Shown here piece by piece: positions 6,756 to 57,891 of a DNA stretch of 64,000 nucleotides. Made by a program: the position numbers and the translations under genes. Position 1 is the first letter of the stretch. The number at the start of each line of letters is the position of its first letter. Below the pieces are notes generated by a model. The model had not been told where the DNA came from, made no database searches, and was given only the letters and a program-made list of their open reading frames with translations. This DNA is from an uncultured Acidobacteriota bacterium (GTDB lineage: Bacteria; Acidobacteriota; Vicinamibacteria; Vicinamibacterales; CAVVIG01). The stretch covers positions 11,516-75,515 of the forward strand of contig CAVWHY010000004.1 of the NCBI GenBank assembly GCA_963754955.1. The letters run 5' to 3'.

Positions 6756-6933
6756 GGGTGGGCCTGGTGAGGTCGGGTAGGTCTGGTGGGGCGGGTAGGT
6801 CTGGTGGGGCGGGTAGGTCTCGTTGGTCGGGTACGTCTGGTGGGCCGCGCAGGGAATGACAGCGCTCTGCTTACCTCCGTCGCTTGCCCACCAGACCCAC
6901 CAGACCCACCCGACCGACCCGACCCACCTGCCC
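6756..6933. repeat. composite hairpin A: ~4 tandem 18-nt units (GGGCGGGTAGGTCTGGTG) opposed by CCCACCAGACC-type units
   Basis: Left arm 6771-6842 splits into units of 18/18/19/17 nt. Right arm 6886-6933 (cccaccagacccaccagacccacccgaccgacccgacccacc) is the imperfect reverse complement. Lies directly after the PBP1A stop (6742-6744). Confidence 0.8.
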
Positions 6934-6934
6934 G

Positions 6935-6940
6935 TATAAT
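6935..6940 (+). promoter_or_regulatory. candidate -10 box TATAAT, 7 nt upstream of the xdhC GTG
   Basis: Perfect TATAAT in a high-GC background, immediately after repeat A. No SD-like sequence fits between it and GTG 6948. Confidence 0.4.
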
Positions 6941-6947
6941 CGCAGCA

Positions 6948-7790
6948 GTGAATCAAGAGGTGTTCGCGGCTGTGGCCGGGGCGCTCGACCGGGGCGAGCC
7001 GGCTGCCCTTGTGACGATCGTGGCGGCGCGCGGCTCGACACCGCAGCGCGTCGGCGCCAAGATGCTGGTCTTCGCCGACGGCCGCATCGTCGGCACGATT
7101 GGCGGCGGCTGCTACGAGAACGATGCGTTCTGGAAAGCTCGCGAGGCCATCACCAACCGGCGTCCCGAGCTCGTGCACTACGAGTTGGACGACGACTTCG
7201 CCCAGGAGACCGGGCTGATCTGCGGTGGACAGATGGACGTCTACATCGAGCCAATCGAGCCGTCGCCCGAACTCTACGTCGTGGGCGCCGGTCACGTCGG
7301 CTTTCACCTGGCGCGCGTCGCGCACGAAGTGGGATTCCGCGTCCACGTCGTGGACGACCGCGAGAAGTTCGCCAATCGCGAGCGGTTTCCGGACGCCGTC
7401 GAGATCGTGGTGGAAGACATCCCCGCCTGGATCGGCCGCACCCAGCTTCCCGCCCACGCGTACGCGGTCATCGTGACGCGGGGTCACACGAACGACCTCG
7501 AAGCGCTGCGGGCGCTCGCGCCGCGCGACCTGCGCTACCTCGGCCTCATCGGCAGCCGCGCCAAGGTGGCGCGGATCTACCATCAGCTGCTGGCCGACCA
7601 GATCGCGCCCGAGACCCTCACACACGTCCACGCCCCCATCGGCCTGGACATCGGCGCCGTCACGCCGCAGGAAATCGCCGTCAGCATCCTCGCCGAGCTG
7701 ATCGCCGTCAAACACGGCAAAGCTCTCGACAAGGACGGCGGCGGCCGCTCGATGAAATGGGAACCACCCAAGCTGGTTGCCAAAGAATGA
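6948..7790 (+). CDS. XdhC/CoxI family molybdoenzyme maturation protein
   Basis: ORF 6786..7790, but its first 54 codons are repeat A read through (GRVGLVGRVGLVGR). The conserved part starts at GTG 6948 (NQEVFAAVAGALDRGEPAALVTIVAARGSTPQRVGAKM). Rossmann-like ELYVVGAGHVG in the second domain. Confidence 0.8.
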   Translation: MNQEVFAAVAGALDRGEPAALVTIVAARGSTPQRVGAKMLVFADGRIVGTIGGGCYENDAFWKAREAITNRRPELVHYELDDDFAQETGLICGGQMDVYIEPIEPSPELYVVGAGHVGFHLARVAHEVGFRVHVVDDREKFANRERFPDAVEIVVEDIPAWIGRTQLPAHAYAVIVTRGHTNDLEALRALAPRDLRYLGLIGSRAKVARIYHQLLADQIAPETLTHVHAPIGLDIGAVTPQEIAVSILAELIAVKHGKALDKDGGGRSMKWEPPKLVAKE

Positions 7791-7865
7791 ATCACGAAGA
7801 CACGAAGCACACGAAGAAGGTCTAGCCTCTCGTGGTCTTCTTCGCGGCCTTCGTGGCTTCGTGAT
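7791..7865. repeat. hairpin B, CACGAAG/CTTCGTG family
   Basis: Left arm atcacgaagacacgaagcacacgaagaaggtc (7791-7822). Right arm gtggtcttcttcgcggccttcgtggcttcgtgat (7832-7865). Fills the whole xdhC-to-amidohydrolase gap. Confidence 0.8.
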
Positions 7866-7869
7866 GTAG

Positions 7870-9198
7870 ATGTCCTCCCTTCTCATCCGCGGCGGTGTCG
7901 TGGTCACGATGAACGACGCGTTCGACATCGTGCAGGGCGACGTCTCGATCCGCGATGGCCGGATCGCCGCGATCAATCGCGGCGTGACGGCGGATCCCCA
8001 TGACACGATCATCGACGCGCACGGCGGCTGGGTGCTGCCCGGCTTCGTTCAGACGCACGTCCACCTCTGCCAGACGCTGTTCCGAGGCTCTGCGGACGAC
8101 CTGAGCCTGATGGACTGGGTGCGCACGCGCATCTGGCCGATGGAAGCGGCGCACACACCCTCGACGCTTCGAGCGGCCGCGCGGATCGGCATCGCGGAGC
8201 TGCTCGCTTCGGGTACCACCACCGTGCTGACGATGGAGACCGTGCACGAGACGGACGTGGTGTTCGAGGCCGCGGCGGAAGCAGGCATCCGCGCCACCAT
8301 CGGCAAGTGCATGATGGACTCGGGCGACGATGTCCCCGCGCGGATGCGCGAGCAGACGAACGCGTCGATCGACGAGAGCGTAGCGCTCGGCAAACGGTGG
8401 GATGGCGCCGCGGGAGGTCGGCTGCACGCCGCGTTCGCGCCGCGCTTCGCCGTCTCGTGCTCGCCCGCGCTGCTCGAGGCCGTGGCCAGCCTGTCGGACG
8501 CGCACCACACGCTCGTGCACACGCACGCCTCCGAATCGCGCGACGAGATCGCGATCGTGCGGCAGCTATCGGGCGGCGTGTCGAACATCGAGTACCTCGC
8601 GAGGCTGCGGCTGGCGTCGCCGCGCCTGTGCTGCGCCCACTGCGTCTGGGTGGACGGGCGCGAGCAGGCGTTGCTCGCCGAGCACGGGGTCAACGTCTTG
8701 CACTGCCCGAGCTCCAACCTGAAGCTGGGTTCCGGCGTCGCGCCGGTGGCCGCCATGCGGACGCGCGGGATCAACGTATCGCTCGGCGCCGACGGCGCCG
8801 CCTGCAACAACCACCTCGACATGTTCACCGAGATGCGGCTGGCCGCGCTGCTGCAGTCGGCGACGGCCCATCCCGGCGCGCTGACGGCGCGCGATGCGCT
8901 CCTCATGGCGACACGCGCGGGCGCGCGAGCGCTGGGACTCGACGGTGACATCGGCTCGATCGAGCGCGGCAAACGGGCGGATGTGATCGTGATCGACCGC
9001 GAGCCGCCGCACCTCGTGCCCGCGCCGGACCCCTACTCGACGATCGTCTACGCCGCGCGCGCGTCCGACGTGCGCGCGACCATCGTGGATGGCGAGGTGC
9101 TCGTGCGCGAGGGACGGGCGGTGCGGACGGACGCCGCCGCCATCACGGCCGAGGCGCGCGCGGCCGCGCGGGAGCTCGCGGCGCGCGCCAGTGTATAA
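7870..9198 (+). CDS. amidohydrolase-superfamily deaminase (MTA/SAH-deaminase-like, cog0402-type)
   Basis: ORF. Motifs LPGFVQTHVHLCQTLFRGSADDLSLMDWV, HCPSSNLKLGSGVAPV, LGADGAACNNHLDMFTEMRLAALLQ match the MtaD / chlorohydrolase-type deaminase family. Substrate cannot be called from sequence. Confidence 0.8.
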   Translation: MSSLLIRGGVVVTMNDAFDIVQGDVSIRDGRIAAINRGVTADPHDTIIDAHGGWVLPGFVQTHVHLCQTLFRGSADDLSLMDWVRTRIWPMEAAHTPSTLRAAARIGIAELLASGTTTVLTMETVHETDVVFEAAAEAGIRATIGKCMMDSGDDVPARMREQTNASIDESVALGKRWDGAAGGRLHAAFAPRFAVSCSPALLEAVASLSDAHHTLVHTHASESRDEIAIVRQLSGGVSNIEYLARLRLASPRLCCAHCVWVDGREQALLAEHGVNVLHCPSSNLKLGSGVAPVAAMRTRGINVSLGADGAACNNHLDMFTEMRLAALLQSATAHPGALTARDALLMATRAGARALGLDGDIGSIERGKRADVIVIDREPPHLVPAPDPYSTIVYAARASDVRATIVDGEVLVREGRAVRTDAAAITAEARAAARELAARASV

Positions 9199-9199
9199 T
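9194..9199 (+). promoter_or_regulatory. candidate -10 box TATAAT of the hrcA operon
   Basis: Perfect TATAAT overlapping the stop codon of the upstream gene, 2 nt upstream of the CIRCE element. Confidence 0.5.
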
Positions 9200-9201
9200 G
9201 T

Positions 9202-9228
9202 TTGGCAGTCTCTGAGCGCGAGTGCTAA
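9202..9228 (+). promoter_or_regulatory. CIRCE operator (HrcA binding site)
   Basis: TTGGCAGTC-N9-GAGTGCTAA versus consensus TTAGCACTC-N9-GAGTGCTAA. It abuts the hrcA ATG, sharing one base with it. Confidence 0.85.
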
Positions 9229-10268
9229 TGTCTGCTGAGCCCAACGACCGCGCCAAACGCGTCCTCGCCGCGCTCGTGCGCGAATACATCGCCTCGGGCG
9301 AACCCGTCGCGTCGTCCGTGCTCGTCACGGCGGCCGGCCTCGGGGTGTCTTCCGCCACCGTCCGCAACATTCTCGCGCGGCTCGAGGACGAAGGGTTCGT
9401 CCAGCAGCCGCACACGTCGGCCGGGCGCATCCCCACGGATCGCGGCTATCGGTTCTACGTGGATCTGCTACTCGACTCGAGACGTTCGAGCCGGACGGCG
9501 CACGCCGTCGAGGCGCGTCTGCGCCGCGACCATGCGGGCCGGCTGCCCGATTCGATGCTGCCCGGAGTTTCGCACCTGGTCTCTCAGGCGTCGGGCCACA
9601 TCGGTTTCGTGCTGCAGCCCGCGCAGGAAGGCGCCGTGTTCGACCGCGTCGAGTTCGTTCCGCTCAGCACGTCGCGCGTGCTCGTCATCATCGTCGCCCG
9701 CGGGGGCCACGTGATCCAGAAAGTCATCGAGATCGCGGAACCGCTCGGCGCCGACGACCTGCGCGAGGCGGCCAACTACCTGAACCGGGAGTTTTCGGGG
9801 CTGCCCCTCGCCCGCGCCCGCGAGGCGGTGCGCGAGCGCATCAACGAAGAGCGCATGCTGTACGACGCGCTCCTGGCACGGGCGATGCGCCTCGCCTCGT
9901 CGACGTTCACGGATCTGCCCCGCGGTGGAACCATCTACGTGGACGGCGCCGCGTCGCTCCTCGAGGAGACGCACGGCCTTACGCTCGGCACGCTGCAGAC
10001 GCTGCTCCAGATGATGGAAGAAAAGCAGCGGCTGGTCCACCTGTTGAACGAATACATCGACGGCCCCGGCCTGACCGTCGTCATCGGCGCTGAGCATCTG
10101 GATCCGAACCTGCGGTCCTTCAGCCTGATCATCTCGACATACGGCGATGGGATGGCGATTGGTACCGTGGGCGTGATCGGACCGACGCGCATGCGGTATC
10201 CGCGCGCTATCGACGTGGTGGACGGCGCGGCCCAGGCCGTATCGCGCGTTCTGCGCGATCCAAATTAG
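9228..10268 (+). CDS. hrcA: heat-inducible transcription repressor HrcA
   Basis: ORF 9222..10268. N-terminal winged-helix segment RAKRVLAALVREYIASGEPVASSVL..SSATVRNILARLEDEGFVQQPHTSAGRIPT. ATG 9228 preferred over GTG 9222. Confidence 0.9.
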   Translation: MSAEPNDRAKRVLAALVREYIASGEPVASSVLVTAAGLGVSSATVRNILARLEDEGFVQQPHTSAGRIPTDRGYRFYVDLLLDSRRSSRTAHAVEARLRRDHAGRLPDSMLPGVSHLVSQASGHIGFVLQPAQEGAVFDRVEFVPLSTSRVLVIIVARGGHVIQKVIEIAEPLGADDLREAANYLNREFSGLPLARAREAVRERINEERMLYDALLARAMRLASSTFTDLPRGGTIYVDGAASLLEETHGLTLGTLQTLLQMMEEKQRLVHLLNEYIDGPGLTVVIGAEHLDPNLRSFSLIISTYGDGMAIGTVGVIGPTRMRYPRAIDVVDGAAQAVSRVLRDPN

Positions 10269-10380
10269 CAGTATGTTGCCCAGAGATCAGATCCGGCCGC
10301 TCCGTAGTCGCGGCTGGAGAATCGCGGCCAGGGCTTGTTGTACGCGGTACTCTTCCAGGTGATAGGCACCACTAGAACGT

Positions 10381-12873: not shown

Positions 12874-12880
12874 GGCTCAC

Positions 12881-12924
12881 AAGGTCCAAGAGGTCCACAG
12901 GTCCGAGGGGTCCAAGAGGTCCGC
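12881..12924. repeat. tandem array C, five GGTCC-centred 8-9 nt units (GAGGTCC family), no opposing arm
   Basis: aaggtccaagaggtccacaggtccgaggggtccaagaggtccgc, running up to the ATG at 12925. Confidence 0.75.
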
Positions 12925-14766: not shown

Positions 14767-14770
14767 AACC

Positions 14771-15520: not shown

Positions 15521-15530
15521 TGTGGCGGTC

Positions 15531-15536
15531 ATTATA
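15531..15536 (-). promoter_or_regulatory. candidate -10 box TATAAT for rsmE (minus strand), 10 nt before ATG 15520
   Basis: Minus strand reads cgTATAATgaccgccacaATG. Confidence 0.4.
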
Positions 15537-15554
15537 CGGTTCAACCATGAACGA

Positions 15555-15560: not shown

Positions 15561-15569
15561 CACTCCCAC

Positions 15570-17591: not shown

Positions 17592-17713
17592 AGGGGCCAG
17601 GGGTTCGCGCCAGAGGTCAGAGCCGAGAGGTTAGGGATAGGGGTTGGCCCGAAAGGCGGCTGACCGTCTGCCTTCCCCAACCTCTAACCTCCAACCTCTA
17701 ACCCCTCACCCCC
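17592..17713. repeat. hairpin D, CCAGAGGTT/AACCTCT (GGGGCC) family
   Basis: Left arm aggggccaggggttcgcgccagaggtcagagccgagaggttagggataggggttgg. Right arm ccaacctctaacctccaacctctaacccctcaccccc. Spans the entire ilvE-pilT gap and ends 1 nt before the pilT ATG. Confidence 0.75.
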
Positions 17714-17714: not shown

Positions 17715-18837
17715 ATGCCTATGCACGTCAATGATCTCCTGAAGATCGCCGTCGAGAATGGCGCGTCGGACCTGCACATCAAGGTGGGCAGCTACCCGAT
17801 GATGCGGCAGCGCGGCCTCCTGGTGCCCGCCTCCGAGGAAAAACGGCTCAACCACGAAGATGTGGTCGCCATGAGCGCGGCCGTGATGTCGAACATTCAC
17901 CGCGAGAAGTTCAAGGACGCGCAGGAAGTCGACCTCGCGTACAGCGTCCCCGGCCTGGGCCGGTTCCGCGTGAACGTCTTCCAGCAGCGCGGCACGGTCG
18001 GCCTGGTCCTGCGCGTCATCCCGATGGCCATCAAGACCATCGACGACCTCGGCTTGCCCGTGATCCTCAAGAAAGTCGCGAGCGAGGAGCGCGGACTCGT
18101 CCTGGTGACGGGCACGACCGGCAGCGGCAAGAGCACGACGCTGGCGGCGATGATCGATCACGTCAACCGCACGCGCTGCGCGCACGTGATGACGGTCGAG
18201 GATCCGATCGAGTTCCTGCACCGCGACAACCAGTCGATCGTCAATCAGCGCGAGGTCGCCGTCGACACGCGGTCGTTCGCCTGGGCGCTGCGCAGCGCGC
18301 TGCGCCAGGATCCGGACGTCATTCTCGTCGGCGAAATGCGCGACTTCGAGACGATCGAAACGGGCCTGCTGGCGGCGGAAACGGGCCACCTCGTCTTCTC
18401 CACCCTCCACACGCTCGACGCGACGGAGACCATCAACCGCATCATCGCCGTATTTCCGCCGCACCAGCAGAAGCAGGTCCGCCTGCAATTGGCGGCGGTG
18501 CTCAAGGCGCGTCATCTCCCAGCGGCTCATCCCGCGCTCCGACGGACACGGCCGCGTGCCCGCCGTCGAGGTGATGATCGCGACGGCGTTCATCCGCGAC
18601 TGCATCGTCGACAAGGAACGCACGCACCAGATTCCGGCCGCCATCGCCGCCGGGACGTCGCAATACGGGATGCAGACCTTCGATCAGTCGATCTTCGGAC
18701 TGTTCGAGCAGGGCCTGGTGTCGTACGACGAGGCGCTGCGCTGGGCGACCAACGTCGACGAATTCAAGCTCAAGGTGCAGGGCATCTCGACTAACGCCGA
18801 CATGGGCCGCGACGCGATCACCCGCTTCGGGAGTTAG
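17715..18837 (+). pseudogene. pilT: type IV pilus twitching-motility ATPase PilT; frame broken once (~18507-18511)
   Basis: ORF 17715..18794 carries the N-terminus (Walker A GTTGSGKST). ORF 18556..18837 carries the true C-terminus (VPAVEVMIATAFIRDCI..). Junction ..AAVLKA|VISQRLIPRSDGHGR needs removal of one base in aaggcg[c]gtcatc. Confidence 0.85.
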
Positions 18838-18858: not shown

Positions 18859-19339
18859 GTGGACTCCCGGAGGGCCTACATCGACGGCCTCAAGATGCTC
18901 GGACGGCGCGAACTGTCCGAGGCCCAGATCCGCCAGCGCCTCGCCCGCCGCGACCACGAACCCGACGCCATCGACGCCGCGGTCGCGCTGCTGATCGAGC
19001 GAACGCGCCATCGACGATGCCCGTGTGGCCGCCGCGATCGCGCGCACCGAGACCGGCATCCGCAAGCGCGGGCGGCTGCGGGTCCAGCGCAAGATCGAAA
19101 GCGCCGGCATCTCCCCCGCCACGGCCCGGCGCGCGGTCGACGAGGTGTTCGGCGCCCTCGACGACGAGGGTCTGCTCGAGTCGGCGCTCGCCAAACGCCT
19201 TCGCGGGGGCGCGTCCATCGCAGACCAGCGCGAGTTCAACCGGCTTTACCGGTATCTCGTCGGCCAGGGCTTCGAACCACACCGGGTGCTCGCGATCCTC
19301 AAGAAGAACCACAAAGGGCACGAAGAACACGAAGACTAG
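18859..19339 (+). pseudogene. recX: recombination regulator RecX; frame broken once (~19000-19007)
   Basis: GTG 18859 ..AYIDGLKMLGRRELSEAQIRQRLARRDHEPDAIDAAVALLIER continues in ORF 19025..19339 frame as AIDDARVAAAIARTETGIRKRG... The C-terminal tail KKNHKGHEEHED is encoded by repeat E. Confidence 0.75.
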
Positions 19340-19376
19340 GCATCCGGCTTTGTGGCCTTCGTGATCTTTGTGGTTC
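19301..19376. repeat. hairpin E, CACGAAG/CTTCGTG family, left arm inside the recX 3-prime end
   Basis: aagaagaaccacaaagggcacgaagaacacgaagac / ctttgtggccttcgtgatctttgtggttc. Confidence 0.75.
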
Positions 19377-19389
19377 AATTGATTCCGCG

Positions 19390-22020: not shown

Positions 22021-22128
22021 CCAGGCTGCTGGGGGCGTAAGCCCCGACCCCGCCCCTAGCCCTCGGACCTCAGCCTCCAGCGCCCAGCGCAGCCCCTGGT
22101 CCCGGGGCCTACCTCTACAGCCCTCAGG
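22021..22128. repeat. one-armed C-rich element F related to the right arms of D and K, plus a small GTAA-loop hairpin (22031-22045)
   Basis: gcccctagccctcggacctcagcctccagcgcccagcgcagcccctggtcccggggcc resembles K (gccctggcccccagcctctagcccc). No clear opposing arm found. Confidence 0.45.
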
Positions 22129-22914: not shown

Positions 22915-22976
22915 GCCCGGACCCGCCGGACCCCGTGGACCTCTCGGACCTCTCGGACCCTCGGACCCTCGGACCC
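22915..22976. repeat. tandem array G, seven CGGACC-centred 7-9 nt units (complement of the GAGGTCC family) between convergent genes
   Basis: ggcccggacccgccggaccccgtggacctctcggacctctcggaccctcggaccctcggaccc fills exactly the gap between stop 22914 (+) and stop 22977 (-). Confidence 0.8.
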
Positions 22977-24707
22977 TTATTCCCCTCGCTCCACCCCGAA
23001 CAAGTCGAGCCGTTCGTAGGCCGGCGCAAGCCATTCGGTCGCCAGCACGACTTCGATCAGCACCACAAGGGTGAAGACAACCGTTGCGGGCACCAGCGTC
23101 GCTGCGCCGAGGAGCGCGTGCAGCGCGAACCACACGAGGCCGCCGGCAATGGCGCCGGGCAGCGCGAACAGCAGCAGCGAACAGACGACGCCGGCCATCA
23201 TGATGAGCCGCTGCCCCATCGCATCGACGCCGCGCGGCTGCTGCATCCCCGCCGGCACCCACGCGGGAAAAAAGATCGCGACGGCGTTGTGCACGATGTA
23301 CTGCGGCGTCACGAGCGCCGGTGCCGCCACGATTCCCGAAACGGCGAGGACCCAGCGCCAGGTCTCGGACAGGCGCGGGAACGCGGTCCCCGCGAACAAC
23401 GCGGCACATGCGACGCCGACCCACACCGTGACGACCACCACGCTGGCCGGCCACAGGATTTCGCCGCGGATGACCGAGCCCGCCCGCACCGGCCACGTCT
23501 TCAGGACGTCGAGATGCTGCAGGTCGCCGCGCAAGTCGAGGCGCATCAACTGCGGGCCAAACAGCACGCCGAACGCGCTGACGGCCAACGAAAAGCTCGT
23601 GACGATGCCCGCGGCGCCCCGCAGGCGGTTGGCCGCCAGGACCGCGAACGAGAGGCCGATGACGGCGGCCGCAATCGGCACCCCCATGCGCAGCACCGTG
23701 GCGTCGCTGGCCCTGAGCATCTGCATGCCGTTCTTCCACACGAAGATGCCTTCGGCGCGGCCGGTCAGCGGCAGCGTCCAGCCGGCAGCCCGGGCCCGCG
23801 GCGCCGACCGGCGGGCGCTCGCGTCGCTCGTTTCCTGCGCGCCGACCTCGCCTGCGGCAAGCTCGAACGCATCCGCTGCCGACAGCAGCCACAGCGTAAC
23901 GGCTGCCAGCACCGCGAGCGACCCGGCCAGCGCGATCAGGTAGGCGCCGGCATCGGGCACCGCCAGCGGCCGCAGCATGGCGGCAAACGGCCAGAGGACG
24001 ATGGACGTCACGCCGCCCGCGGTCGTGCGAACCAGGCGAACCCACAAGTCCGAAAGGCTGGCCGCCGGCTGCGCGAGAAACTGGCGCACGATCGTGCCGC
24101 CGACGATGGCAACGGCCGCACACGTGATCGCGATCGGGCACCCACGCCGCGCGCCGCACTGCGGCGTCGGCCGACTTCAAGCGCGACACGCGTCAGCGCG
24201 ACGCCGGCGAAGTACACGCGAGCCGACAGCAGGAAGGCCCAGATCGCCACGACGAACTGCACCCGCGCCGCGGCGGAGGCGGGCGCGACGAGCGCCACGA
24301 CGATCACGGAGGCGATGAGCGACCCGATCTGCGAGCGCAGAATCTTGTGGAGCAGCAGCTGCCGGCGCGTTAGCGGCGCCGAAAACAGAAACGCGGCCTC
24401 GGCGCGCGAGAACTCCAGCAGCGCGCTCCTGGCGGGAAGGAGCCAGACACACGCCGCCAGCGCGAACACCCCAAGGCCGGCGAGCGACGATCCCGTCGCC
24501 TGCCATGCCGGCTGCCAGCCCGGCCACTCCCCGGCCGGGGCCCCTCGGTCTGCCGACCGCCACCGCGGTTGAACACCGCGAAGTACAGATACGCCGACCC
24601 CGACGATCGCCCCGATCAGGTAGCGCGGCTCGCGCAGCCGGCGCAGCCTGACGCGGAGCCGGTTGCGCGCGGAGCAGACGATCAGGTACAGTGCTCGCGC
24701 TCAGCAT
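22977..24707 (-). pseudogene. multi-pass membrane component of a putative ABC exporter; about 5 frame breaks
   Basis: ORF 22977..24089 (370 aa, many TM helices) plus upstream fragments 24008..24469 and 24370..24576. N-terminus MLSASTV../LIVCSARNRLRVRLRRLREPRYLIGAIVGVAYLYFAVF starts at ATG 24707, 2 nt after the ATPase stop. Family assignment is tentative. Confidence 0.6.

Positions 24708-27355: not shown

Positions 27356-27359
<4 letters not shown>
26814..27359 (-). CDS. lptE: LPS-assembly lipoprotein LptE
   Basis: ORF. Lipoprotein signal ..[18 protein letters not shown] then ..[13 protein letters not shown]... Sits between leuS and holA as in many Gram-negatives. Confidence 0.8.
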
Positions 27360-29882
<2,523 letters not shown>

Positions 29883-34962: not shown

Positions 34963-35724
<762 letters not shown>

Positions 35725-35828
35725 TTGGTCATCTGGTCATTTGGTCATCTGGTCATTGCTGATCAACTGGTCACTCGATCAATCAGTGATCAAATGACCA
35801 AATGACGAGATGACCAGATTGGTTGGCG
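35725..35828. repeat. hairpin H, TGGTCAT/ATGACCA family (locally lower GC)
   Basis: tttggtcatctggtcatttggtcatctggtcattgctgatcaactg // cagtgatcaaatgaccaaatgacgagatgaccagattgg. Fills the gap between the fabF stop (35835) and the etfB start (35724). Confidence 0.8.
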
Positions 35829-40080: not shown

Positions 40081-40197
40081 AGGTCGAAGAAGTCCGTAGG
40101 GTCCAAGAGGTCCGAGGGGTCCGGGAGGTCGGCCCCTCCGAATATATGGACCTCTCTGACCTCTGGGACCTGTTGGACCTCTAGTCTTCTTCGACGG
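40081..40197. repeat. hairpin I, GAGGTCC/GGACCTC family, ~50-nt arms; right arm overlaps the rpmF stop
   Basis: Left arm aggtcgaagaagtccgtagggtccaagaggtccgaggggtccgggaggtcg. Reverse complement of the right arm is cgtcgaagaagactagaggtccaacaggtcccagaggtcagagaggtcc. Both begin GTCGAAGAAG. Confidence 0.85.
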
Positions 40198-43218: not shown

Positions 43219-43300
43219 GCAGAACGAAGGACGCGGAACGTCGAGGTCTGTCCGCTCCCTCCACTCTACGTTCTACGTTCTACATTCTACGTTGTCTTCG
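43219..43300. repeat. hairpin J, ACGTAGAA/TTCTACG family; right arm encodes the MiaA C-terminal residues
   Basis: gcagaacgaaggacgcggaacgtcgagg // ctctacgttctacgttctacattctacgttgtcttcg. The miaA stop (43273-43275) lies inside the right arm. Confidence 0.7.
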
Positions 43301-45272: not shown

Positions 45273-45356
45273 GGGGGCTTGGGGCCAGAGGTTGGAGGCC
45301 GGGGCATGGAGGCATATCAGGCCTGCCAGCCCTGGCCCCCAGCCTCTAGCCCCTGC
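45273..45356. repeat. hairpin K, GGGGCC/CCAGAGGTT family; right arm contains the ubiE stop
   Basis: gggggcttggggccagaggttggaggccggggcatggaggc // gcctgccagccctggcccccagcctctagcccctgc. Confidence 0.7.
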
Positions 45357-46099: not shown

Positions 46100-46129
46100 C
46101 ATCACGAAGGCGCGAAGAAGCACGAAGAC
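46100..46129. repeat. one-armed array L, three CACGAAG-type units
   Basis: catcacgaaggcgcgaagaagcacgaagac in the ubiX-ubiE gap. Confidence 0.6.
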
Positions 46130-50064: not shown

Positions 50065-50858
50065 CAGAAAAACCGGAGGCCCTCCGAGGTCGGCGCCACG
50101 TCGATTTCCGCCGCATACCGATAGAACAGCTCCAGGCCCGCCTGTTCCTCGGCGCCTAAATGGTACTTGATATTCTCGCGCAGGTAGCGCATCCCGACCG
50201 CCTGCCGGCCCGGCGTGTCCCTCAGGTACGCGCAGGCGACCTCGTCGGACGCCGCCACGCCCGCGTCCCGTGCCCGCTGCAACGCTTCGACGTCCCCCGG
50301 CTCGAGCAGCGCCCGGCCGGCCGGCCCAGAAGGCATAGACGAATGGCAGACCGGTCAGGTCCGTCCAGGCGCTGCCGAGATCTATCACCTCGACCGGCAG
50401 CTTGTGCTCGACCTTCGGCTGAAACAGCGCGTTGTCGCCGATGATCAGGGCGGCGTCACACCGTCCCAGCATCTGCGACAAATCCGGCCCTGCCGGTTCT
50501 ATCGCGGGGCTGATTTTGAACAGCCGCGCGCACAGGACGCGCACCAGCGCGACCGACGTGCGCGAGCTGACGTCCATCGCGATCGACCGGACGTCGGCCA
50601 TCGGTTTCGACGTAAACAGCAGCGACCGACGCCACCGGTCCGCGCGAGGCGATGGCGAGGTCGGGCACGATGGCATACGGGCCGTCCCCGCAGGTACTCG
50701 ATGGAGGGAATCAGTCCGAGGTCGATCGCACCGTCGTGAAGGAGCGACGCGCAGGTGGACGGCACGTCGAAGCGCAGCAGGAATCGCAGCGAGCGGTCGA
50801 GACCGTACACGAGCGGACGCGCGTTGAGGTACCCCACCGCGCCGAGACGGACCATCAT
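50064..50858 (-). pseudogene. mqnA: chorismate dehydratase MqnA; 3 frame breaks (~50685, ~50625, ~50315)
   Basis: MMVRLGAVGYLNARPLVYGL.. (ORF 50499..50858), then GPYAIVPDLAIASRGPVASV (50456..50668 frame), then LLFTSKPMADVRSIAMDVSSRTSVALVRVL.. (48850..50988 frame), then ..ALLEPGDVEALQRARD..YRYAAEI (50064..50336). Confidence 0.8.
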
Positions 50859-51731: not shown

Positions 51732-51742
51732 CGCGAACCACG

Positions 51743-51748
51743 ATTTTA
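51743..51748 (-). promoter_or_regulatory. candidate -10 box TAAAAT (minus strand), 11 nt upstream of GTG 51731
   Basis: Minus strand reads gccaTAAAATcgtggttcgcgGTG. Confidence 0.3.
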
Positions 51749-51792
51749 TGGCACCGCCTGCCCCGGCAACAACCCCGGGAGCGAAGCGCGCG

Positions 51793-52380: not shown

Positions 52381-52408
52381 AGCGCACTCCTGTTCGAGCA
52401 CTCCGGCC

Positions 52409-53257
52409 TTACTTGTCGGCCCCCAGAATCAGGGGCAGCCCGTTCTTCGAGTTGCCGATGACCACCACTTTCGCATTGCTGCTGGTGGCCAGCTTCTCGG
52501 TCGCCTCGATGCCCTTCCACTCGAGCAGCTGGGGGCTGATGCCCTGCGCGACAATACGCTGGAAATCGGCGACGCCCTGGGCTTCTATGCGCTTGCGCTC
52601 GGCTTCCTGCTGCTCCTTCTGCAGCACGAACTTCATCTGCTCGGCTTCCTGCTCGCGCCGCAGCTTTTCCTGAATCGCATTGGCGACGACCGGCGGCAGG
52701 CCAATCTTCCGAAGCAGCACCTGCTGGACGATGATGCCGCGCTCGCCTGCGATGCGTTTGAAGAGGCCGAAGATTTCGCCGGCGATCTTCTCGCGCTCGG
52801 CCGAGTAGAGCGCTTTCGCTTCGTACGACGCGGTGATTTCGCGAATGGCGGACCGGAACTGCGGCTCGACGATCGTCCCGATGTAGTCCGCGCCGACCGT
52901 CCGGTAGATCTCCACGGCCTTGGCGGGATCCAGCTGGAACAGCAGCGACGTCTCGAGCGAGAGAATCAGGCCCTCCTGCGATGGGACCTCCGCGACTTCC
53001 TTGATTTCCTGCGTCTGGATTGACATCCGCACGACACTGGTCATCGGCAGCACGATACCGATGCCCGGCGAAAGCGTGGACGACGACACGCTGCCGAAGA
53101 AATCCTTCACGCCGACGTTGCCGGCCGGCACGGTTCGAAACGGCCCGGCGATCAGGAACACGACGATCAGGATCGCGACTCCCACGACGAGCCCGACGCG
53201 CGACGGACGAGGCAACTGCACCGTCGGCATCCTGGAGAAGTCAGAGTCCACACTCAC
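52409..53257 (-). CDS. SPFH/Band-7 (prohibitin-like) membrane protein
   Basis: C-terminal part of ORF 52409..54403. TM (VGLVVGVAILIVVFLIAG) then the SPFH core ..TVPAGNVGVKDFFG..EVPSQEGLILSLETSLLFQLDP..IVEPQFRSAIREITA.. and a coiled-coil tail. GTG 53257 overlaps the UbiD stop (GTGA). Confidence 0.8.
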   Translation of the reverse strand: MSVDSDFSRMPTVQLPRPSRVGLVVGVAILIVVFLIAGPFRTVPAGNVGVKDFFGSVSSSTLSPGIGIVLPMTSVVRMSIQTQEIKEVAEVPSQEGLILSLETSLLFQLDPAKAVEIYRTVGADYIGTIVEPQFRSAIREITASYEAKALYSAEREKIAGEIFGLFKRIAGERGIIVQQVLLRKIGLPPVVANAIQEKLRREQEAEQMKFVLQKEQQEAERKRIEAQGVADFQRIVAQGISPQLLEWKGIEATEKLATSSNAKVVVIGNSKNGLPLILGADK

Positions 53258-54702
53258 CTTCCTTTCACCCGCGACCAGATTTCGGCGGCCTTCCGCCCCG
53301 CCGCCTCGGACGTCGCGATGCGCGCCGGCCAGGTCCGCGTGTAGCCCTCCGACGCCCACTTCCGCGTCGCATCGATGCCCATCTTGCCGCCATACGCCGG
53401 CAGCTCGGCGGCATCGTCCAGATCGTCCACGGGGCCCTTCGTCATCTGCACGTCGCGCAGCGGATCGACGTGCGTGCCGACGATCCAGGCGACTTCGCTG
53501 ACGTCGTGAACGTTGACGTCCTTGTCCACGATCGACGATCGCCTTCGAGAACATCAGCTGGCCGAGGCCCCAGCACGCGTGCATGATCTTGCGGGCGTGC
53601 CCCGGGTAGCGCTTGTCGATCGAGATGATGACGAGGTTGTGGAAGATGCCCTCGGCCGGGAAGTGCATGTCCACGATCTCCGGCACGGTCTTGCGAATCA
53701 GCGGGAGGAAGATGCGCTCGCTCGCGAGCCCGAGATAGTAGTCCTCCATCGGGGGAATGCCGACGATCGTCGTCAGGTAGGTCGGCTTCTTTCGCTGCGT
53801 CACGCAGGTCAGGTGGAACACCGGGTAGTCGTCGGGCTGCGAATAGAAGCCCGTGTGGTCGCCGAACGGGCCCTCGCGGCGGCGCTCGCCGGGCTCGACG
53901 TACCCCTCGAGCACGATGTGCGCGCTCGCGGGCACCTCGAGATCGACGGTCACGCACTTGACCATCTCGATGCGCCGCCGGGCGAGGAATCCGCCGAGCA
54001 GCAGCTCGTCGAGGCCTTCGGGCATCGGAGCCGTCGCGCAATACGTGAGCACGGGTTCCGGGCTGAGCGCGACGGCCACCTCGAGCCGCCGGCCCAGGCG
54101 CTCCGCGATCCGGTGATGCTGCGCGCCGCCTTTGTGGCGCTGCCAGTGCATGCCGGTGGTGCGCCCGTCGAACACCTGCATCCGGTACGTGCCGATGTTG
54201 CGCATCCCGGTTTCGGGATCCTTCGTGAAGACGAGCGGCAGCGTGATGAACCGTCCGCCGTCCTGCGGCCAGCACGTGAGGATCGGCAGGTCGTCGAGGG
54301 TGCCGTCCTTGCGGACGATTTCCTGGCACGGCGCGTCCGATACGGTCTTCGGCATCAGATCGCTCAGCCGGTTGACGAGCGGCATGAGCTTCAGCGCGTC
54401 CATGATGCCCTTCGGGCATCGGCGGCGTCATGAGCTGCGTCGATCTCGCGGCCGAGATCGTCGAGCGTCTCGACGCCGAGCGCCAGGCACATGCGCTCGA
54501 GGGAGCCGAACACATTCGACGCCACCGGCATGCTGAAGCCCGCGGGCTTCTCGAACAGCAGCGCCGGCCCGCCGCCGCCGGACTTGCACGCGCGATCGGT
54601 GACCGCCGCGATCTCGAGATCGGGGCTCACCGGCTCGGCGATGCGCGCCAGCAGCTTCCGGCGATCGAGGTCAGTGATGAAGTCGTTGAGATCTGAGTAC
54701 AT
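53254..54702 (-). pseudogene. UbiD-family decarboxylase (MqnL-like); 3 frame breaks (~54435, ~54405, ~53535)
   Basis: MYSDLNDFITDLDRRKLLARIAEPVSPDLEIAAV (ORF 54391..54714), then QLMTPPMP, then IMDALKLMPLV..CWPQDGGRFITLPLVFTKDPETGMRNIGTYRMQV..GPFGDHTGFY (ORF 52409..54403), then VDKDVNVHDVSEVAW.. (ORF 53254..53529). Confidence 0.85.
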
Positions 54703-54710
54703 TCGAGTCG

Positions 54711-54773
54711 CCACGAGTCCGAAACCACGAAGACATCGAATCTCGGACTTCGTGTCTTCGTGCTCGTGGTTGC
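54711..54773. repeat. hairpin M, CACGAAG/CTTCGTG family
   Basis: ccacgagtccgaaaccacgaagacatcg // cggacttcgtgtcttcgtgctcgtggttgc, between the gfo stop (54785) and the ubiD start. Confidence 0.7.
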
Positions 54774-54784
54774 ACTGCGCTATC

Positions 54785-55697
54785 TTATCGGTGATCTGCC
54801 TGCGCCACGGCGAGCGCGCGGCGGCCCTGCTCGCCCGTGACGAGCGGCGCGCGCCCCGACACGACGGCGTCGACGAAGTCGGACAGCTCGCGGACGAGCG
54901 GCTCTTCGTTCGTGACCGGCACGTCGCCGCCTTGAATCGACGGGAACCCGCCGCCGGTCACCAGCTTGTACATCTCCACCTTCTGCGCGGCGTAATCGAT
55001 CGACAGATACGCGGACGGCTGGAAGAACCGGATCTTCCGCACCCGGTCGCGGCTGATGCGGCTGGCCGTCAGGTTCGCGAGGCAGCCGTTCTTGAACCGG
55101 ACGCGCACGTTGGCGATGTCCACGCGGCCCGTCAGGACGGGCACGCCGACGGCGTCAATCGACTCGACGTCCGAATCGACCAGCGACAGCACGACGTCGA
55201 GATCGTGAATCATCAGGTCGAACACGACGTCGATGTCCAGGCTCCGCTCGGGGAACACGCCCAGCCGGTGCACTTCGATGAACCGCGGGTTGGCCACCAG
55301 CGGGCGCGCCACGGCGACCGCGGGATTGAACCGCTCGGTGTGGCCGACCGCGAGGCGCGGCGCCGGTCTTCGCCGCCGCCGCGATCATGTCGTCGGCTTC
55401 GGCGAGGCTCCTCGCCATCGGCTTCTCGACCAGCACCGACACGCCCGCGGACAGAAACGGCAGCGCGATGTCGCGGTGAATCTCCGTGGGCACGGCGATC
55501 GTGACGGCGTCCACCTTCCCCGCCAGCTCGCGCGCGTCGGTCAGCGGCGCGGTGTGGTTCGCCGACGCAATTTCCCCGGCGCGCGCCTTGTTCGTGTCCA
55601 CGACGGCGACGAGCTCCACGCCGGGCATGGACGAGAGAATGCGGGCGTGATGCTTGCCCAGGTGCCCGACACCGACGACGGCAATTCGAAGCGACAT
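54785..55697 (-). pseudogene. Gfo/Idh/MocA-family oxidoreductase (lpx-cluster associated); one frame break (~55355-55365)
   Basis: MSLRIAVVGVGHLGKHHARIL.. (ORF 55155..55697) joins ..LAVGHTERFNPAVAVARPLVANPRFIEVHR.. (ORF 54785..55312 frame). Confidence 0.8.
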
Positions 55698-55703
55698 TGT
55701 TGA

Positions 55704-56565
55704 TTAGAAGCGACGACTCATCACGAAGCCACGATGATCACGCAAGCAGAGGGGCCGTCCCACGATCGCGATCTTCGCTTCGTTGGCCGACGCCAGCACG
55801 GCCTCGCGGTCGAGGACGAGGGTCTTCCCGGCGTCGATCGAGAGCACGGCGGCCCCGGCCACGCGCATGGCCTGCATCGTCGCGAAGCCGATGACCGGCA
55901 CGTCGAACCGCATGTCCTGCTTCGGCTTCGCGACCTTGATGATGGCAGACGCCCGGTCCGGCAAGATGCCCCGCGCGGGCAATCACTTCGTCGGTGCCCT
56001 CCATCGCCTCGACGGCCACGACGGCCTGGTGCTTCACCGCGACGGTCTGGCCGACGTCGAGCCCTGCAATCTGGTCCGCGATCCGGTAGCCGAACGCCAG
56101 GTCCTTCTGCTCTTCCTCGGTCGGCGCCCGGGTCGTCAGCACGCCGGGAGCCGCGAGCAGCGGCGTGAGGAGCGCGGTGGAGTCCATCAGCTCGATGCCG
56201 TTTTCGCGCAGGACGCCCGCGACGGCGCCGATGACGCCGTCCGTGTTCCGCGACATCAGCTTGCCAAGCACCTTCGCCATCGTCCAGTCCGGCGTGATGC
56301 CCATGGAAAAGATCTTCGTGTGCTTGACCTGGCCGGCCATGACCGCGTGCGAGACGCCCGCATTCTTCAGCAGGCTGATGCAGGTGCCGAGCTGGCCCAG
56401 CGAGACCCAGTGAATCTCGCTGCCGGTCCGCTTCGCCGCGTCGGTCAGTTCGGGGAACGTCTCTTCCTTCGCCGCGACGACGGTCACGTCGTGGCCGGCC
56501 GCGCGCGCGGCCTCGAGGACGAGGAACGGGAACCGCCCGTTACCGGCGATGAGTCCGAGGCGCAT
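55704..56565 (-). pseudogene. lpxI: UDP-2,3-diacylglucosamine diphosphatase LpxI (DUF1009); one frame break (~55970-55990)
   Basis: [27 protein letters not shown].. to ..[16 protein letters not shown] (ORF 55738..56565), then ..[23 protein letters not shown].. (ORF 55704..55982). The last ~15 codons are CACGAAG-type repeat sequence. Confidence 0.8.
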
Positions 56566-57819
56566 CTATTCATCGGCCAGCACTTCTTCCGCGCGCCGCG
56601 ATGCACGGCGCAGCACGACGCCGCGCTGCGACGTGCGGATGAAGTCGACCAGGTATTCGACTTCGTCGCACGACAGCGATCGGTCCCGCTTGATCTGCTG
56701 CAGCGCCTTCGTCGTGTTCAGCTTGGACTGGAGCAGGTACCGGAACGATCGCTTCAGCTTCTCGATGACGTCGGGCTTCAGCCCCCGCCGCTCGAGGCCG
56801 ATCGTGTTCACGCCGAAGATGCGCGCGGGACGGCTGCCGACCGTCCGGGCAAACGGCAGCGCGTCCTTGGTGACGACCGAGTAGCCGCCGATGAACCCGT
56901 GGCGGCCGACGCGGCAGAACTGGTGCACGGCCGAGCCGGCGCTGATGTTGGCGAAATCCTCGACGGTCACGTGGCCGCCGAGCGTCGCGTGCGGTCCGAA
57001 AATGGTGTCGTGTCCGACGTGGCAGTCGTGCGCGACGTGCACGTACGCCATGAAGACGTTGCGGTCGCCGATTTCGGTGACGCCGCCGCCGCCGCGCGTG
57101 CCGCGGTTGATCGTCACGAACTCGCGGAAGATGTTGCGCCGGCCGATCGAGAGCCGCGTCGGCTCGCCCTTGAACTTCAGGTCCTGCGGAATGAGCCCGA
57201 TCGAGGCGAACGGGAAGATCTCGGTTTCGTCGCCGATGTCGGTCCACCCGTCCACGACCGCCGACGCGCCAATCGCGCAGTTGGCGCCGATGCGCACGTG
57301 AGCGCCGATCACGGCGTGCGGCCCGATCGTCGTGCCCTGCCCGACGTGGGCGTCGGGATGCACGATCGCCGTCGCGTCGATTTGCGTGCGGTCTGGCACG
57401 AGCCCCAGCAGCAGCTCGGCCTCCGCCACCACCTGATCGCCCACGTACGCGGCCGCCTGCGCGCGGGCGAGCGGCGCGCGGCGCCGGCCGAGCGAAATCT
57501 CCAGCCTGAGCCGATCGCCCGGCACGATCGGGCGCCGGAACTTGGCGTCGTTGAAGCCGCGGACGTACACGCGGGCGTTCGGCGCGCCGTCTTCGCGGTG
57601 CAGCAGCAGGACGGCGGCCACCTGCGACCACGACTCGAGCATCAGCACCGCCGGCATCAGCGGCGTGCCCGGAAAGTGGCCCTGGAAGAACTCTTCGTTG
57701 ACGGTGACGTTCTTGACGGCGACGAGCCGGCGGCCGGCGTCGTGCTCGACGATCGCGTCAACCAGCGTGGACGGGTACCGGTAGCAGAGGCGGTCGACGA
57801 GGGCGTTGATGTTGATCAA
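56566..57819 (-). CDS. single ORF fusing 3-hydroxyacyl-ACP dehydratase FabZ (aa ~1-145) to UDP-GlcNAc acyltransferase LpxA (aa ~146-417)
   Basis: ORF, 417 aa. FabZ part YRYPSTLVDAIVE..VTVNEEFFQGHFPGTPLMPAVLMLES. LpxA part IDATAIVHPDAHVG..hexapeptide repeats..IGLIPQDLKFKGEPTRLSIG..INRGT... No stop or Met at the junction (..LLLGLVPDRTQID..). Confidence 0.8.
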   Translation of the reverse strand: MININALVDRLCYRYPSTLVDAIVEHDAGRRLVAVKNVTVNEEFFQGHFPGTPLMPAVLMLESWSQVAAVLLLHREDGAPNARVYVRGFNDAKFRRPIVPGDRLRLEISLGRRRAPLARAQAAAYVGDQVVAEAELLLGLVPDRTQIDATAIVHPDAHVGQGTTIGPHAVIGAHVRIGANCAIGASAVVDGWTDIGDETEIFPFASIGLIPQDLKFKGEPTRLSIGRRNIFREFVTINRGTRGGGGVTEIGDRNVFMAYVHVAHDCHVGHDTIFGPHATLGGHVTVEDFANISAGSAVHQFCRVGRHGFIGGYSVVTKDALPFARTVGSRPARIFGVNTIGLERRGLKPDVIEKLKRSFRYLLQSKLNTTKALQQIKRDRSLSCDEVEYLVDFIRTSQRGVVLRRASRRAEEVLADE

Positions 57820-57830
57820 GGCGCTGATAA

Positions 57831-57891
57831 CGTAGAACGCAAAACGTCAGACGTCAAACTGACGTTTCCGTCCGAGGTTCCGCGTTCTACG
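57831..57891. repeat. nested palindrome O, ACGTAGAA/TTCTACG family
   Basis: Outer perfect 10-bp stem cgtagaacgc (57831-40) / gcgttctacg (57882-91). Inner perfect 9-bp stem aaacgtcag (57842-50) / ctgacgttt (57859-67). Confidence 0.8.

Follow-up and report, generated by a model that had tools for sequence, protein, structure and literature searches.

Intergenic gaps along a 64-kb stretch of chromosome from an uncultured acidobacterium (contig CAVWHY010000004.1; the window, below, is the whole of this stretch) contain real, non-coding and hypervariable palindromic repeats, built as 5'-(unit)n - unique loop - (complementary unit)n-3' from units of 7-9 nt. The original prediction, made by reading the sequence by itself, had placed intergenic tandem-unit elements at fifteen sites, and 7-9-nt units are indeed present at fourteen of the fifteen, as judged from the sequence and from a Tandem Repeats Finder (TRF) scan. 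The explanation that we favor, with a probability of roughly 0.5, is that the elements belong to dispersed, slippage-prone families of palindromic repeats that spread as copies, and that effects on RNA like those of repetitive extragenic palindromes (REPs) are a by-product. Among known systems, the best reading is that they are the acidobacterial counterpart of the heptamer arrays of Xanthomonas and Nostoc. Heptamer-type arrays have long been noticed and left unexplained, the cyanobacterial short tandemly repeated repetitive (STRR) sequences since 1990 and those of Xanthomonas and Beggiatoaceae since 2015.

A DnaJ comparison assigns the window to a Vicinamibacterales (Acidobacteriota) chromosome: its DnaJ is 96%, 94% and 86% identical to those of three uncultured Acidobacteriota metagenome-assembled genomes (MAGs). 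The G+C content is 63-71% over the 64 kb. The comparison set consists of the window and the 80 best matching related loci, 1.46 Mb of graded relatives; nearly all of the 80 are labelled Acidobacteriota or Vicinamibacterales, and synteny between the window and related loci extends over at least 20 kb. We write L001-L020, L038, L040, L041 and L045 for related Vicinamibacterales/Acidobacteriota loci, and X1-X5 for Logan metagenome runs.

Architecture and reality of the repeats

TRF found arrays with periods of 7-9 (or 14-18) nt at 6753-6844/6887-6934, 7793-7863, 12882-12922, 17679-17703, 19303-19335, 22918-22977, 35721-35819, 40081-40182, 43265-43293, 45326-45353 and 55707-55747, and the longest inverted repeats of the window coincide with the predicted sites. 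Folding was compared between each site and its dinucleotide shuffles, on both strands. The long hairpins that had been predicted are strong at nine sites, those starting at 6756, 7791, 17592, 19301, 35725, 40081, 45273, 54711 and 57831, with z-scores from -3.9 to -9.7. At the others this part of the prediction has to be cut back: four sites (12881-12924, 22915-22976, 46100-46129 and 55707-55745) are one-armed arrays that fold no better than their shuffles, the fold at 43219 is weak, and the stretch at 22021-22128 has no TRF array and folds like its shuffles (z -0.1). With both features missing, this last site was left out of the count. A further gap with a strong fold, 61158-61312, was rejected as an element, the fold being that of bamA coding sequence.

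The grouping into six families, done by eye, is sound for families 1, 2 and 4, whose members have 7-mers in common, while families 2 and 3 look related to each other (GAGGTCC/GAGGTT/GAGGCT). Most units contain no G-tract (CACGAAG, TGGTCAT, ACGTAGA and AGGTCCAAG, for example). An Rfam scan of the whole window gave no matches at the gathering score.

Could the arrays have been created during assembly? Logan contigs from independent soil and root metagenomes span six of the elements (6756-6933, 7791-7865, 40081-40197, 43219-43300, 45273-45356 and 46100-46129) with 0-3 differences, and because independent assemblies span them, the elements are not assembly artefacts. At 6753-6934, one independent metagenome contig is short by exactly one 9-nt CCCACCAGA unit at position 6908, which is natural copy-number variation of the array. 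The independent contigs and the one-unit deletion together mean that the elements are real and vary by whole units in nature.

A census of related genomes

Across the comparison set, 186 arrays are intergenic and 153 are coding, with gene calls that were crude and home-made. The corresponding densities, 0.93 and 0.12 per kb, differ about 8-fold, so the expected intergenic enrichment is borne out. Intergenic arrays have sharply restricted periods, namely 7 (86 arrays), 9 (35) and 8 (29) nt along with multiples of these, and almost nothing is found at 6 or at 10-13. Coding arrays have codon-multiple periods and 80% G+C, as against 60% for the intergenic ones. A complementary partner lies within 160 nt of 85 of the 186 intergenic arrays, compared to 9 in a reverse-only control, and the paired arrays together form 58 hairpins (median length, 101 nt).

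The units are highly diverse between genomes (ATGAGTT, CAATCTG, AATTCGG, CAGCTGA, TGGGTTGCC, GTGCGGG, GGTTCAG, AGAATGC and many others). Among distant arrays, the proportion of pairs that belong to the same family is 15% within a locus and 3.7% between loci (odds ratio 4.7, p=1e-19). The grouping into families is thus meaningful, because a few families recur within each genome. In the window, CACGAAG occurs at five sites, and the 21-kb locus L045 carries some ten arrays that all belong to one 9-mer family. In a hairpin family of L045 (14521-14642 and 15993-16129), each 9-nt unit shows the same single mismatch between the two arms (TGGGTTGCC versus GGCYACCCA). Homogenization of units therefore seems to act inside an arm, and not through copying of one arm onto the other.

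Turnover at orthologous gaps

From genome to genome, an orthologous gap keeps its architecture but may differ in unit sequence, size or family. The gap upstream of xdhC, which carries GGTCTGGTGGG/CCCACCAGACC in the window, holds a hairpin in most close relatives, with differing units: GGAAGGCAGGA/CCTTCCTGCC, GGATGGCAG/CTGCAATCC, CCCTACCTG, GGCAGGAGGG/CCCGTCCAG or CACGAAG/CTTCGTG. In some genomes the same gap is only 15-30 nt long and contains a short palindrome at most. The divergent gap upstream of a Ser/Thr kinase gene is empty in the window and is occupied by GGTTCAG elements in L001 and L002, a CACGAAG element in L003, GGGATTC in L038 and GTGCGGG in L040.

The orthologs of 12881 and 17592 have units that match within a genome, AGAGGCT/GGGGCT in L001 and L002 and GGAGGTT in L003, and this match points to exchange or common descent between the two loci.

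Polarity and the CACGAAG family

When all families are pooled, 35 elements start with the G-rich arm and 11 with the C-rich arm. The order is intrinsic to the element and does not depend on which strand is read, because a palindrome reads alike on both strands. For CACGAAG the rule is nearly absolute: in viral contigs of IMG/VR, CACGAAG comes first in 53 stretches and the reverse order occurs in 2, one of which is the junction of adjacent elements. The TGGTCAT arms in viral contigs are ordered 1 versus 5, from matches too few to be informative.

A metagenome scan with the pattern CACGAAG-N(1-2)-CACGAAG-N(8-38)-CTTCGTG matched at least 80 loci, and 80 listed matches were examined. All 80 share one build: TTMAC, units spaced by 1-2 nt, a loop, CTTCGTG units, and GTKAA. 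They range in G+C from 0.38 to 0.71, and their loops are unrelated and AT-rich in AT-rich contigs. Complementarity outside the CACGAAG units exceeds the control for only the first ~4 nt, so the ends of the element are discrete; the same limit rules out a palindrome that continues into the unique flanks. The flanks of 76 family 1 copies, compared with shuffled flank pairs, contain no 2-8-nt direct repeats, whatever the offset, that could represent target-site duplications. Many of the CACGAAG contigs also hold other 7-9-nt families.

The family is found far outside the Acidobacteriota. A CACGAAG hairpin lies between thrC and recJ (L160 8170-8208) in a Methylobacter genome with a GC of 0.48, whose RecJ is 95% identical to proteins of Methylobacter MAGs; as Methylobacter is a gammaproteobacterium, the family crosses phyla. 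Some viral contigs carry 2-4 CACGAAG copies with similar loops and flanks (L203, L246 and L207/L209/L218). In particular, a phage-like IMG/VR contig of 34 kb, with a phage integrase and a phage metallopeptidase, contains at least four CACGAAG hairpins with similar loops (L207 2945-3000 and 9377-9431; L209 4958-5023 and 11921-11975). Over Acidobacteriota, Methylobacter and phage-like contigs the total GC range is 0.38-0.73. A BLAST search of plasmids with the family 1 consensus gave no match, with a low-complexity filter that may have masked the query.

Placement relative to genes

In co-directional gaps, the hairpin begins a median of 4 nt past the stop codon and ends a median of 23 nt before the called start, and 37 of 44 hairpins lie closer to the stop than to the start. 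A -10-like hexamer adjoins an arm (offset -3 to +3) on 14 of 60 start-facing sides and on 0 of 52 sides that face a gene end; the first of these values, 23%, is the baseline for gene starts generally. In divergent gaps the hairpin occupies exactly the interval from ATTATA to TATAAT. Put most simply, the elements take up DNA without other signals: they reach from a few bases past the stop codon to the -10 box or start of the next gene, or lie between divergent -10 boxes. In the window, overlap with stop and start codons, as predicted, is seen at the stop of ORF 19025-19339, at the rpmF, miaA and ubiE-type stops and at the etfB start.

A GAACCTT array (L001 14595-14647; L002 14706-14814) has a TTGAAC hexamer 16 nt upstream of TATAAT, and can by itself supply a -35-like element in these two genomes. 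As a general role for the arrays, however, supply of a -35 sequence was rejected, since it fits L001 and L002 and not the other elements.

Proposed spread of the families as copies

According to the explanation that we favor, each genome holds a few sequence families, each consisting of related copies scattered over many intergenic gaps. The families would have spread as copies rather than arisen on the spot, because they have conserved ends, a fixed polarity, loops shared within genomes and a distribution over several phyla and phages. A copy in place would then change quickly, as whole units are gained or lost (slippage) and its units become homogenized, and orthologous gaps would as a result keep the architecture and change the unit, size or family. 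When transcribed, an element is expected to fold into a stem-loop of ~20-50 bp that has no U-tract.

Several points weigh against this explanation. The ~60 proteins encoded in the 64-kb window, a small sample of the genome, are all housekeeping, and among them we found no transposase, integrase, Y1 protein or REP-associated tyrosine transposase (RAYT), nor any other enzyme able to move or copy the elements. The loops are unrelated between genomes, and the copied unit is therefore not a fixed sequence as in a classical miniature inverted-repeat transposable element (MITE). Among the relatives we found no case of a recent insertion matched by an intact empty site, and absences in them could be losses. 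The G-first polarity over unrelated families points to a shared mechanistic or functional constraint that copying does not explain, and the gene calls behind the census were crude. Some observations, moreover, speak for a hairpin that is selected at gene ends. Arrays are most frequent in convergent gaps (10 of 24), intermediate in co-directional gaps (73 of 320) and rarest in divergent gaps (10 of 68). The closest relative, L001, has a plain hairpin in the position of the 19301 element. Finally, even array-free gaps fold better than their shuffles more often when they contain a gene end (19%) than when they are divergent (9%).

A bolder proposal deals with the source of the copies. CACGAAG, and by extension the other families, may be an unrecognized prokaryotic form of foldback-type mobile or templated DNA that is made or recognized by dedicated machinery; we offer this tentatively, as a possibility and not a likely one. 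Such an element would have the build TTMAC-(CACGAAG N1-2)n - loop - (N1-2 CTTCGTG)n-GTKAA and would generate no target duplication. The candidate machinery would be an HUH-type enzyme or another enzyme acting on single-stranded DNA hairpins, or else a polymerase that copies a short template. The purine-arm-first polarity and the 7-9-nt step would be the footprints of that enzyme, and phages could be the vehicle between phyla.

A possible role as terminators or 3'-end stabilizers

Are the elements simply dedicated terminators without a U-tract, or stabilizers of mRNA 3' ends, in which the hairpin is selected and tandem units are one route to a long stem? The original prediction had considered a terminator of this kind, and its observation that the elements lack U-tracts holds: none is seen on reading the sites, and a scan with a terminator consensus has no match at any element. 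Between positions 1 and 20000, U-tract terminator matches number 10, versus 9.2 expected from shuffles, none of them at an element. Canonical terminators are thus at chance frequency, and matches to canonical promoters do not exceed chance either. The rarity of U-tract terminators speaks for this role of the hairpins, as does their median distance of 4 nt from the stop codon. The three distributions just listed (array frequency by gap type, the plain hairpin in L001 and the plain folds at gene ends) also speak for it, as do the CACGAAG hairpins located between open reading frames (ORFs) of the phage-like contig.

Nevertheless, we think it rather unlikely that termination or stabilization is what defines the elements. 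Over 79 co-directional gaps, sense and antisense strands fold equally well (mean difference 0.57 kcal/mol, p=0.68), and gaps with divergent promoters carry hairpins at the background rate (8 of 56 elements versus 113 of 717 gaps). Because the elements also lie between divergent promoters, show no strand bias in folding and have no U-tract, they are not ordinary terminators. The elements at 7791, 17592 and 35721 end 0-4 nt before the next start codon or include it, and leave no room for a promoter; an efficient terminator at these places would silence the next gene. Furthermore, the element is absent from the orthologous gap in many close relatives, one-armed arrays cannot form hairpins at all, and a generic stem requires neither a fixed polarity (53:2) nor conserved ends. 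Soil and sediment metatranscriptome contigs have 5-9% of words in common with the window and are too fragmentary to give 3' ends.

An effect on RNA is still compatible with families that spread as copies. In transcribed copies the 3' hairpin is likely to act as REPs do, protecting the mRNA upstream of it and reducing read-through. Such an effect seems to be incidental, or co-opted here and there, rather than what the elements exist for.

Less likely readings: local growth, binding sites and chance

Another alternative dispenses with copying between loci. Arrays would grow purely locally, by slippage and fold-back (quasi-palindrome) template switching, and shared units would simply be motifs prone to expansion. 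The exact one-unit polymorphism at 6908, the very wide diversity of units across genomes, the arms of unequal length and the one-armed arrays are all expected from such growth, and the sharp 7-9-nt period hints at a mechanical constraint. There are even possible seeds or relics at places where relatives have arrays, namely GGCAGGCCTGCC in L020 and a single GGTTCA in L001. Local growth would not, however, readily produce the same CACGAAG unit, 5-nt ends and polarity in Acidobacteriota, Methylobacter and phage-like contigs, nor a sharing of families within genomes well above the level between genomes. Copies in one contig with common loops and flanks, and orthologous gaps held by different families in different genomes, are equally hard to reconcile with it. 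We therefore regard a purely local origin as unlikely.

Less probable still is that the elements are arrays of binding sites for family-specific DNA- or RNA-binding proteins, such as a regulator, a nucleoid protein, a Rho-type factor on pyrimidine-rich units or an uptake-sequence receptor. The conservation of a unit across phyla with free loops and flanks would suit binding, and so would the fixed polarity, the regular spacing of 7-9 nt and the existence of one-armed arrays; moreover, MacGregor has proposed protein binding for the TAACTGA repeats (PMC4679880). But dozens of unrelated units would call for dozens of factors, the units drift freely among close relatives, the elements are dispensable at any single gap, and no candidate protein was found. 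As for chance low-complexity sequence or an assembly artefact, the frameshifts that split several window genes (indel errors or pseudogenes) could be taken as a warning, but this explanation is refuted by folding z-scores as low as -9.7, by the independent assemblies that span the elements and by the presence of the same tandem-unit architecture in 80 independent MAGs, in metagenome contigs and in viral contigs.

Any explanation has to satisfy three constraints: the 7-9-nt step, the polarity with the purine- or G-rich arm first (near-absolute for one family), and a family with conserved ends that is shared by phyla and phage-like contigs. The Vicinamibacterales, a major and barely cultured soil lineage, are rich in such arrays. 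If a dedicated enzyme does copy the families, they would represent a new kind of small mobile element, and if the elements act on transcripts, they would be the chief 3' structures in genomes without canonical terminators. In practical terms, the elements break short-read assemblies, and the hypervariable sites could be used for strain typing.

Comparison with known repeats

The original prediction stated that no described class of element fits. This was too strong, since heptamer arrays are known in Xanthomonas, Nostoc, Calothrix and Beggiatoaceae, and their general traits (tandem units of ~7 nt, enrichment in non-coding DNA, families within a genome) all recur here. Xanthomonas has GGGAATC arrays of 2-26 units, with an excess between aligned ORFs and close to stop codons (Rehm et al. 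2015, PMC4692102). Each genome has 70-75 cases in which two arrays on opposite strands are convergent and able to form stem-loops (PMC4692102). The tandem 7-nt units and the convergent inverted pairs resemble those described here, and a convergent G-rich strand amounts to the G-first polarity. The differences are that Xanthomonas has one family prone to form G-quadruplexes (G4), whereas the Acidobacteriota have many families, mostly without G-tracts, with units of 7, 8 or 9 nt, including one with conserved ends and a distribution across phyla and phages. The G4 subclass of Xanthomonas and Nostoc, with GGG(G) in each unit and a preference for four units, does not describe our elements.

Nostoc contains GGGGAYT heptamer arrays, few of which are paired as inverted repeats, and the same article cites three heptamer families for Calothrix (PMC4692102). 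About half of the arrays are paired in our comparison set, in contrast to the few in Nostoc. Mazel et al. reportedly described the STRR heptanucleotide families of cyanobacteria (Calothrix/Nostoc) in 1990; like our elements, these comprise several heptamer families per genome, in tandem and in non-coding DNA. The closest likeness to the spread of CACGAAG is provided by the TAACTGA direct repeats, which are common to Beggiatoaceae, cyanobacteria and Bacteroidetes and whose means of transfer is not known (MacGregor 2015, PMC4679880). For these repeats, 169 direct sets were counted against 1 indirect set, and protein binding was proposed (MacGregor, PMC4679880). In both cases one heptamer family occurs in distant phyla, in intergenic DNA near start codons, and horizontal spread is suspected; TAACTGA differs in being a single family and nearly always a direct repeat. 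To our knowledge, none of the repeats of Xanthomonas, Nostoc/Calothrix or the TAACTGA type has an established function or origin.

The predicted resemblance to REPs and bacterial interspersed mosaic elements (BIMEs) holds loosely. A REP unit is an imperfect palindrome of 20-40 nt with a GTAG or CGTC head, and its partner is a RAYT, a Y1 transposase. Our elements are likewise dispersed extragenic palindromes, in several families per genome, that adjoin gene ends and have no target duplications. What fails is the palindromic unit and the head: the 7-9-nt units are not self-complementary, the stem comes from pairing of two arrays, and family 1 ends as TTMAC|CACGAAG...CTTCGTG|GTKAA, with GTAG present only inside the units of families 4 and 6. 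No RAYT is encoded among the ~60 window proteins. The effects of REPs include protection of mRNA 3' ends and attenuation of read-through (PMC3733652).

Relative to MITEs, the target-site duplication is missing in the 76 family 1 copies, and the internal sequence gives a mixed picture, with loops unrelated between genomes and alike among copies in single contigs. The eukaryotic foldback transposons, such as FB of Drosophila, are of kilobase scale, with target duplications and a known transposase partner. The likeness to them is in architecture only, in the inverted arms of short tandem sub-repeats, the variable arm lengths and the heterogeneous loops. With Rho-independent terminators the elements share a GC-containing stem-loop just past the stop codon, and differ in having no U-tract or strand bias, in their arms of ~20-50 nt (up to ~90) and in their additional presence in divergent gaps.

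Other candidates were considered and rejected. Integron attC sites are excluded by flanks of syntenic housekeeping genes (dnaJ, fabF, plsX, alaS) across 80 genomes and by the lack of an integrase in the window. Mimicry of Shine-Dalgarno or anti-Shine-Dalgarno sequences fits the GAGGT/ACCTC families only, and a Chi-like sequence, GCTGGTGG, fits only family 6 and a few others. Half-sites of parS (TTTCAC...GTGAAA) do not match the half of element ends that read TTAAC...GTTAA, and FtsK-orienting polar sequences (KOPS) and the CsrA GGA motif were also dropped. Our literature searches turned up no account of such repeats in Acidobacteria or of the CACGAAG unit. As far as these searches show, the presence in Acidobacteriota, the multi-family make-up of 7-9-nt units with half of the arrays paired, and the cross-phylum CACGAAG family are new; the quantified placement from stop codon to the next -10 box, the polarity rule and a phage-borne family with defined ends are new as well.

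Individual elements of the window

The repeats are given here in order along the window and without a strand. The family 6 hairpin at 6753-6934 has a left arm (6753-6844) of 4.9 units of CGGGTAGGTCTGGTGGGG and a right arm (6887-6934) of 4.7 units of CCCACCAGA; it is flanked by the PBP1 stop (6744) and the xdhC promoter, with fold z-scores of -3.9/-6.1. A TATAAT box of the -10 type on the plus strand (6935-6940) adjoins the right arm, 7 nt upstream of the GTG of xdhC (6948). The (T)ATAAT is kept at xdhC, with or without the element, in L001-L003, L006-L009, L012, L014, L016 and L020, and its position suggests a leaderless or near-leaderless mRNA and a promoter without need for a fixed -35 sequence.

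The family 1 hairpin at 7791-7865, spanned by contigs of X1, X3 and X4, reads ATCACGAAG-ACACGAAG-CACACGAAG / CTTCGCGG-CCTTCGTGG-CTTCGTGAT (z -6.7). Its first base directly follows the xdhC stop and its end is 4 nt upstream of an ATG at 7870. The orthologs in L001-L003 are also of the CACGAAG family, and L002 has CACAAAG/CTTTGTG, with both arms changed; the alignment yields one compensatory pair, from just four sequences with register shifts, which is too little power for a covariation test. Between the prmA stop and the next ATG, 12881-12924 is a one-armed family 2 array of 4.7 units of AGGTCCAAG, with no complementary arm (z -0.1). Its orthologs, too, have a single arm, rich in purines, and their unit is particular to the genome: AGAGGCT/GGGGGCT in L001 and L002, and GGAGGTT in L003.

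The whole gap between an aminotransferase stop and the pilT ATG is occupied by the family 3 hairpin at 17592-17713, in which GGGGCC/AGAGGTC/AGAGGTT units oppose 3.6 units of AACCTCT (z -5.3/-5.7). Orthologs are hairpins with other units in L001-L004 and L007-L010, and the gap is close to zero in L005, L006, L011, L012 and L018. The element at 19301-19376, a family 1 variant with CACAAAG/CACGAAG units (z -7.6), has a left arm that codes for the final codons and stop of ORF 19025-19339; the element as a whole ends 13 nt upstream of the alaS ATG. It is retained in L002 and L003. In L001, the closest relative, the tandem-unit hairpin is replaced at 18493-18538 (orthologous to 19340-19389) by a plain short one, GGCGACCC-taaaa-GGGTCGCC, and a hairpin of some sort may be needed upstream of alaS.

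The unconfirmed stretch at 22021-22128 (z -0.1/+0.3) is at most a decayed C-rich arm. The convergent gap at 22915-22977 holds a one-armed array of family 2 in the complementary sense, with GGACCYCT-type units (z +1.7), that has 7-mers in common with 12882 and 40148. The strongest fold (z -9.7) belongs to the family 5 hairpin at 35721-35819, in which six TGGTCATY units face four ATGACCAR units. It lies between the fabF stop (35835) and etfB, and the etfB ATG (complement of 35722-35724) is inside the outermost unit. Short-read metagenome contigs often stop at the edge of this TGGTCAT hairpin, at 35723, with 8 loose ends in X1.

Between rpmF and plsX, the family 2 hairpin at 40081-40197 opposes AGGTCSRAG and GGACCTCTN units (z -6.6). 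Its outer stem overlaps the final codons and stop of rpmF (40181-40183), it ends 10 nt before the plsX ATG (40070), and contigs of X1 and X2 span it with 1 difference. The family 4 array at 43219-43300, with a weak partner arm, has 4.1 units of TCTACGT at 43265-43293, across the miaA stop (z -1.6); a contig of X3 spans it, and L041 has 8.6 copies of the matching unit GTTCTAC. The family 3 hairpin at 45273-45356 (GGGGCT/AGAGGTT/GGAGGCC versus CCAGCCTCTAGCCCC; z -5.0) overlaps the stop of a ubiE-type methyltransferase (45346) and is spanned by contigs of X1, X3 and X5.

The remaining elements are short. A one-armed family 1 array at 46100-46129, ATCACGAAG-GCGCGAAG-AAGCACGAAG (z -0.2), is spanned by contigs of X3 and X5 with 0 differences. 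The family 1 hairpin at 54711-54773, with the ends AACCACGAAG...CTCGTGGTT (z -4.4), lies between an oxidoreductase stop and the ubiD start. At 55707-55745, where only 40 nt separate the lpxI stop from the next start, there is a degenerate one-armed family 1 array, TCATCACGAAG-CCACGATG-ATCACGCAAG (z -1.2). The family 4 hairpin at 57830-57892, made of ACGTAGA/ACGCAAA/ACGTCAG heptamers and their complement (z -5.2/-7.2), lies between the skp/ompH stop and the fabZ-lpxA start.

Other features of the window

The genes of the window are all housekeeping genes in conserved order: PBP1, xdhC, hrcA-grpE-dnaJ-prmA, pilT, alaS, leuS and etfAB; the rpmF-plsX-fabDG-acpP-fabF cluster, miaA, and menaquinone and ubiD/ubiX genes; and lpxI, fabZ-lpxA, skp, bamA and clpB. 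Three of them seem to be divided among overlapping ORFs of different frame. The N-terminal and editing domains of leuS are encoded at 27567-29882 and its anticodon-binding domain, in a different frame, at 27356-28309. For ubiD, UbiD_N is at 54391-54702 and the remainder, fused to a Band_7 domain, at 52409-54403. A GFO/IDH/MocA oxidoreductase has its N-terminal part at 55155-55697 and its C-terminal part at 54785-55312. These three splits are either assembly indel errors or pseudogenes, and a similar split of alaS is possible near 21495. Within a radical-SAM menaquinone biosynthesis ORF, ARAGORN calls a 91-nt 'tRNA-???' with an odd anticodon at 50645-50735, which is probably a false positive.

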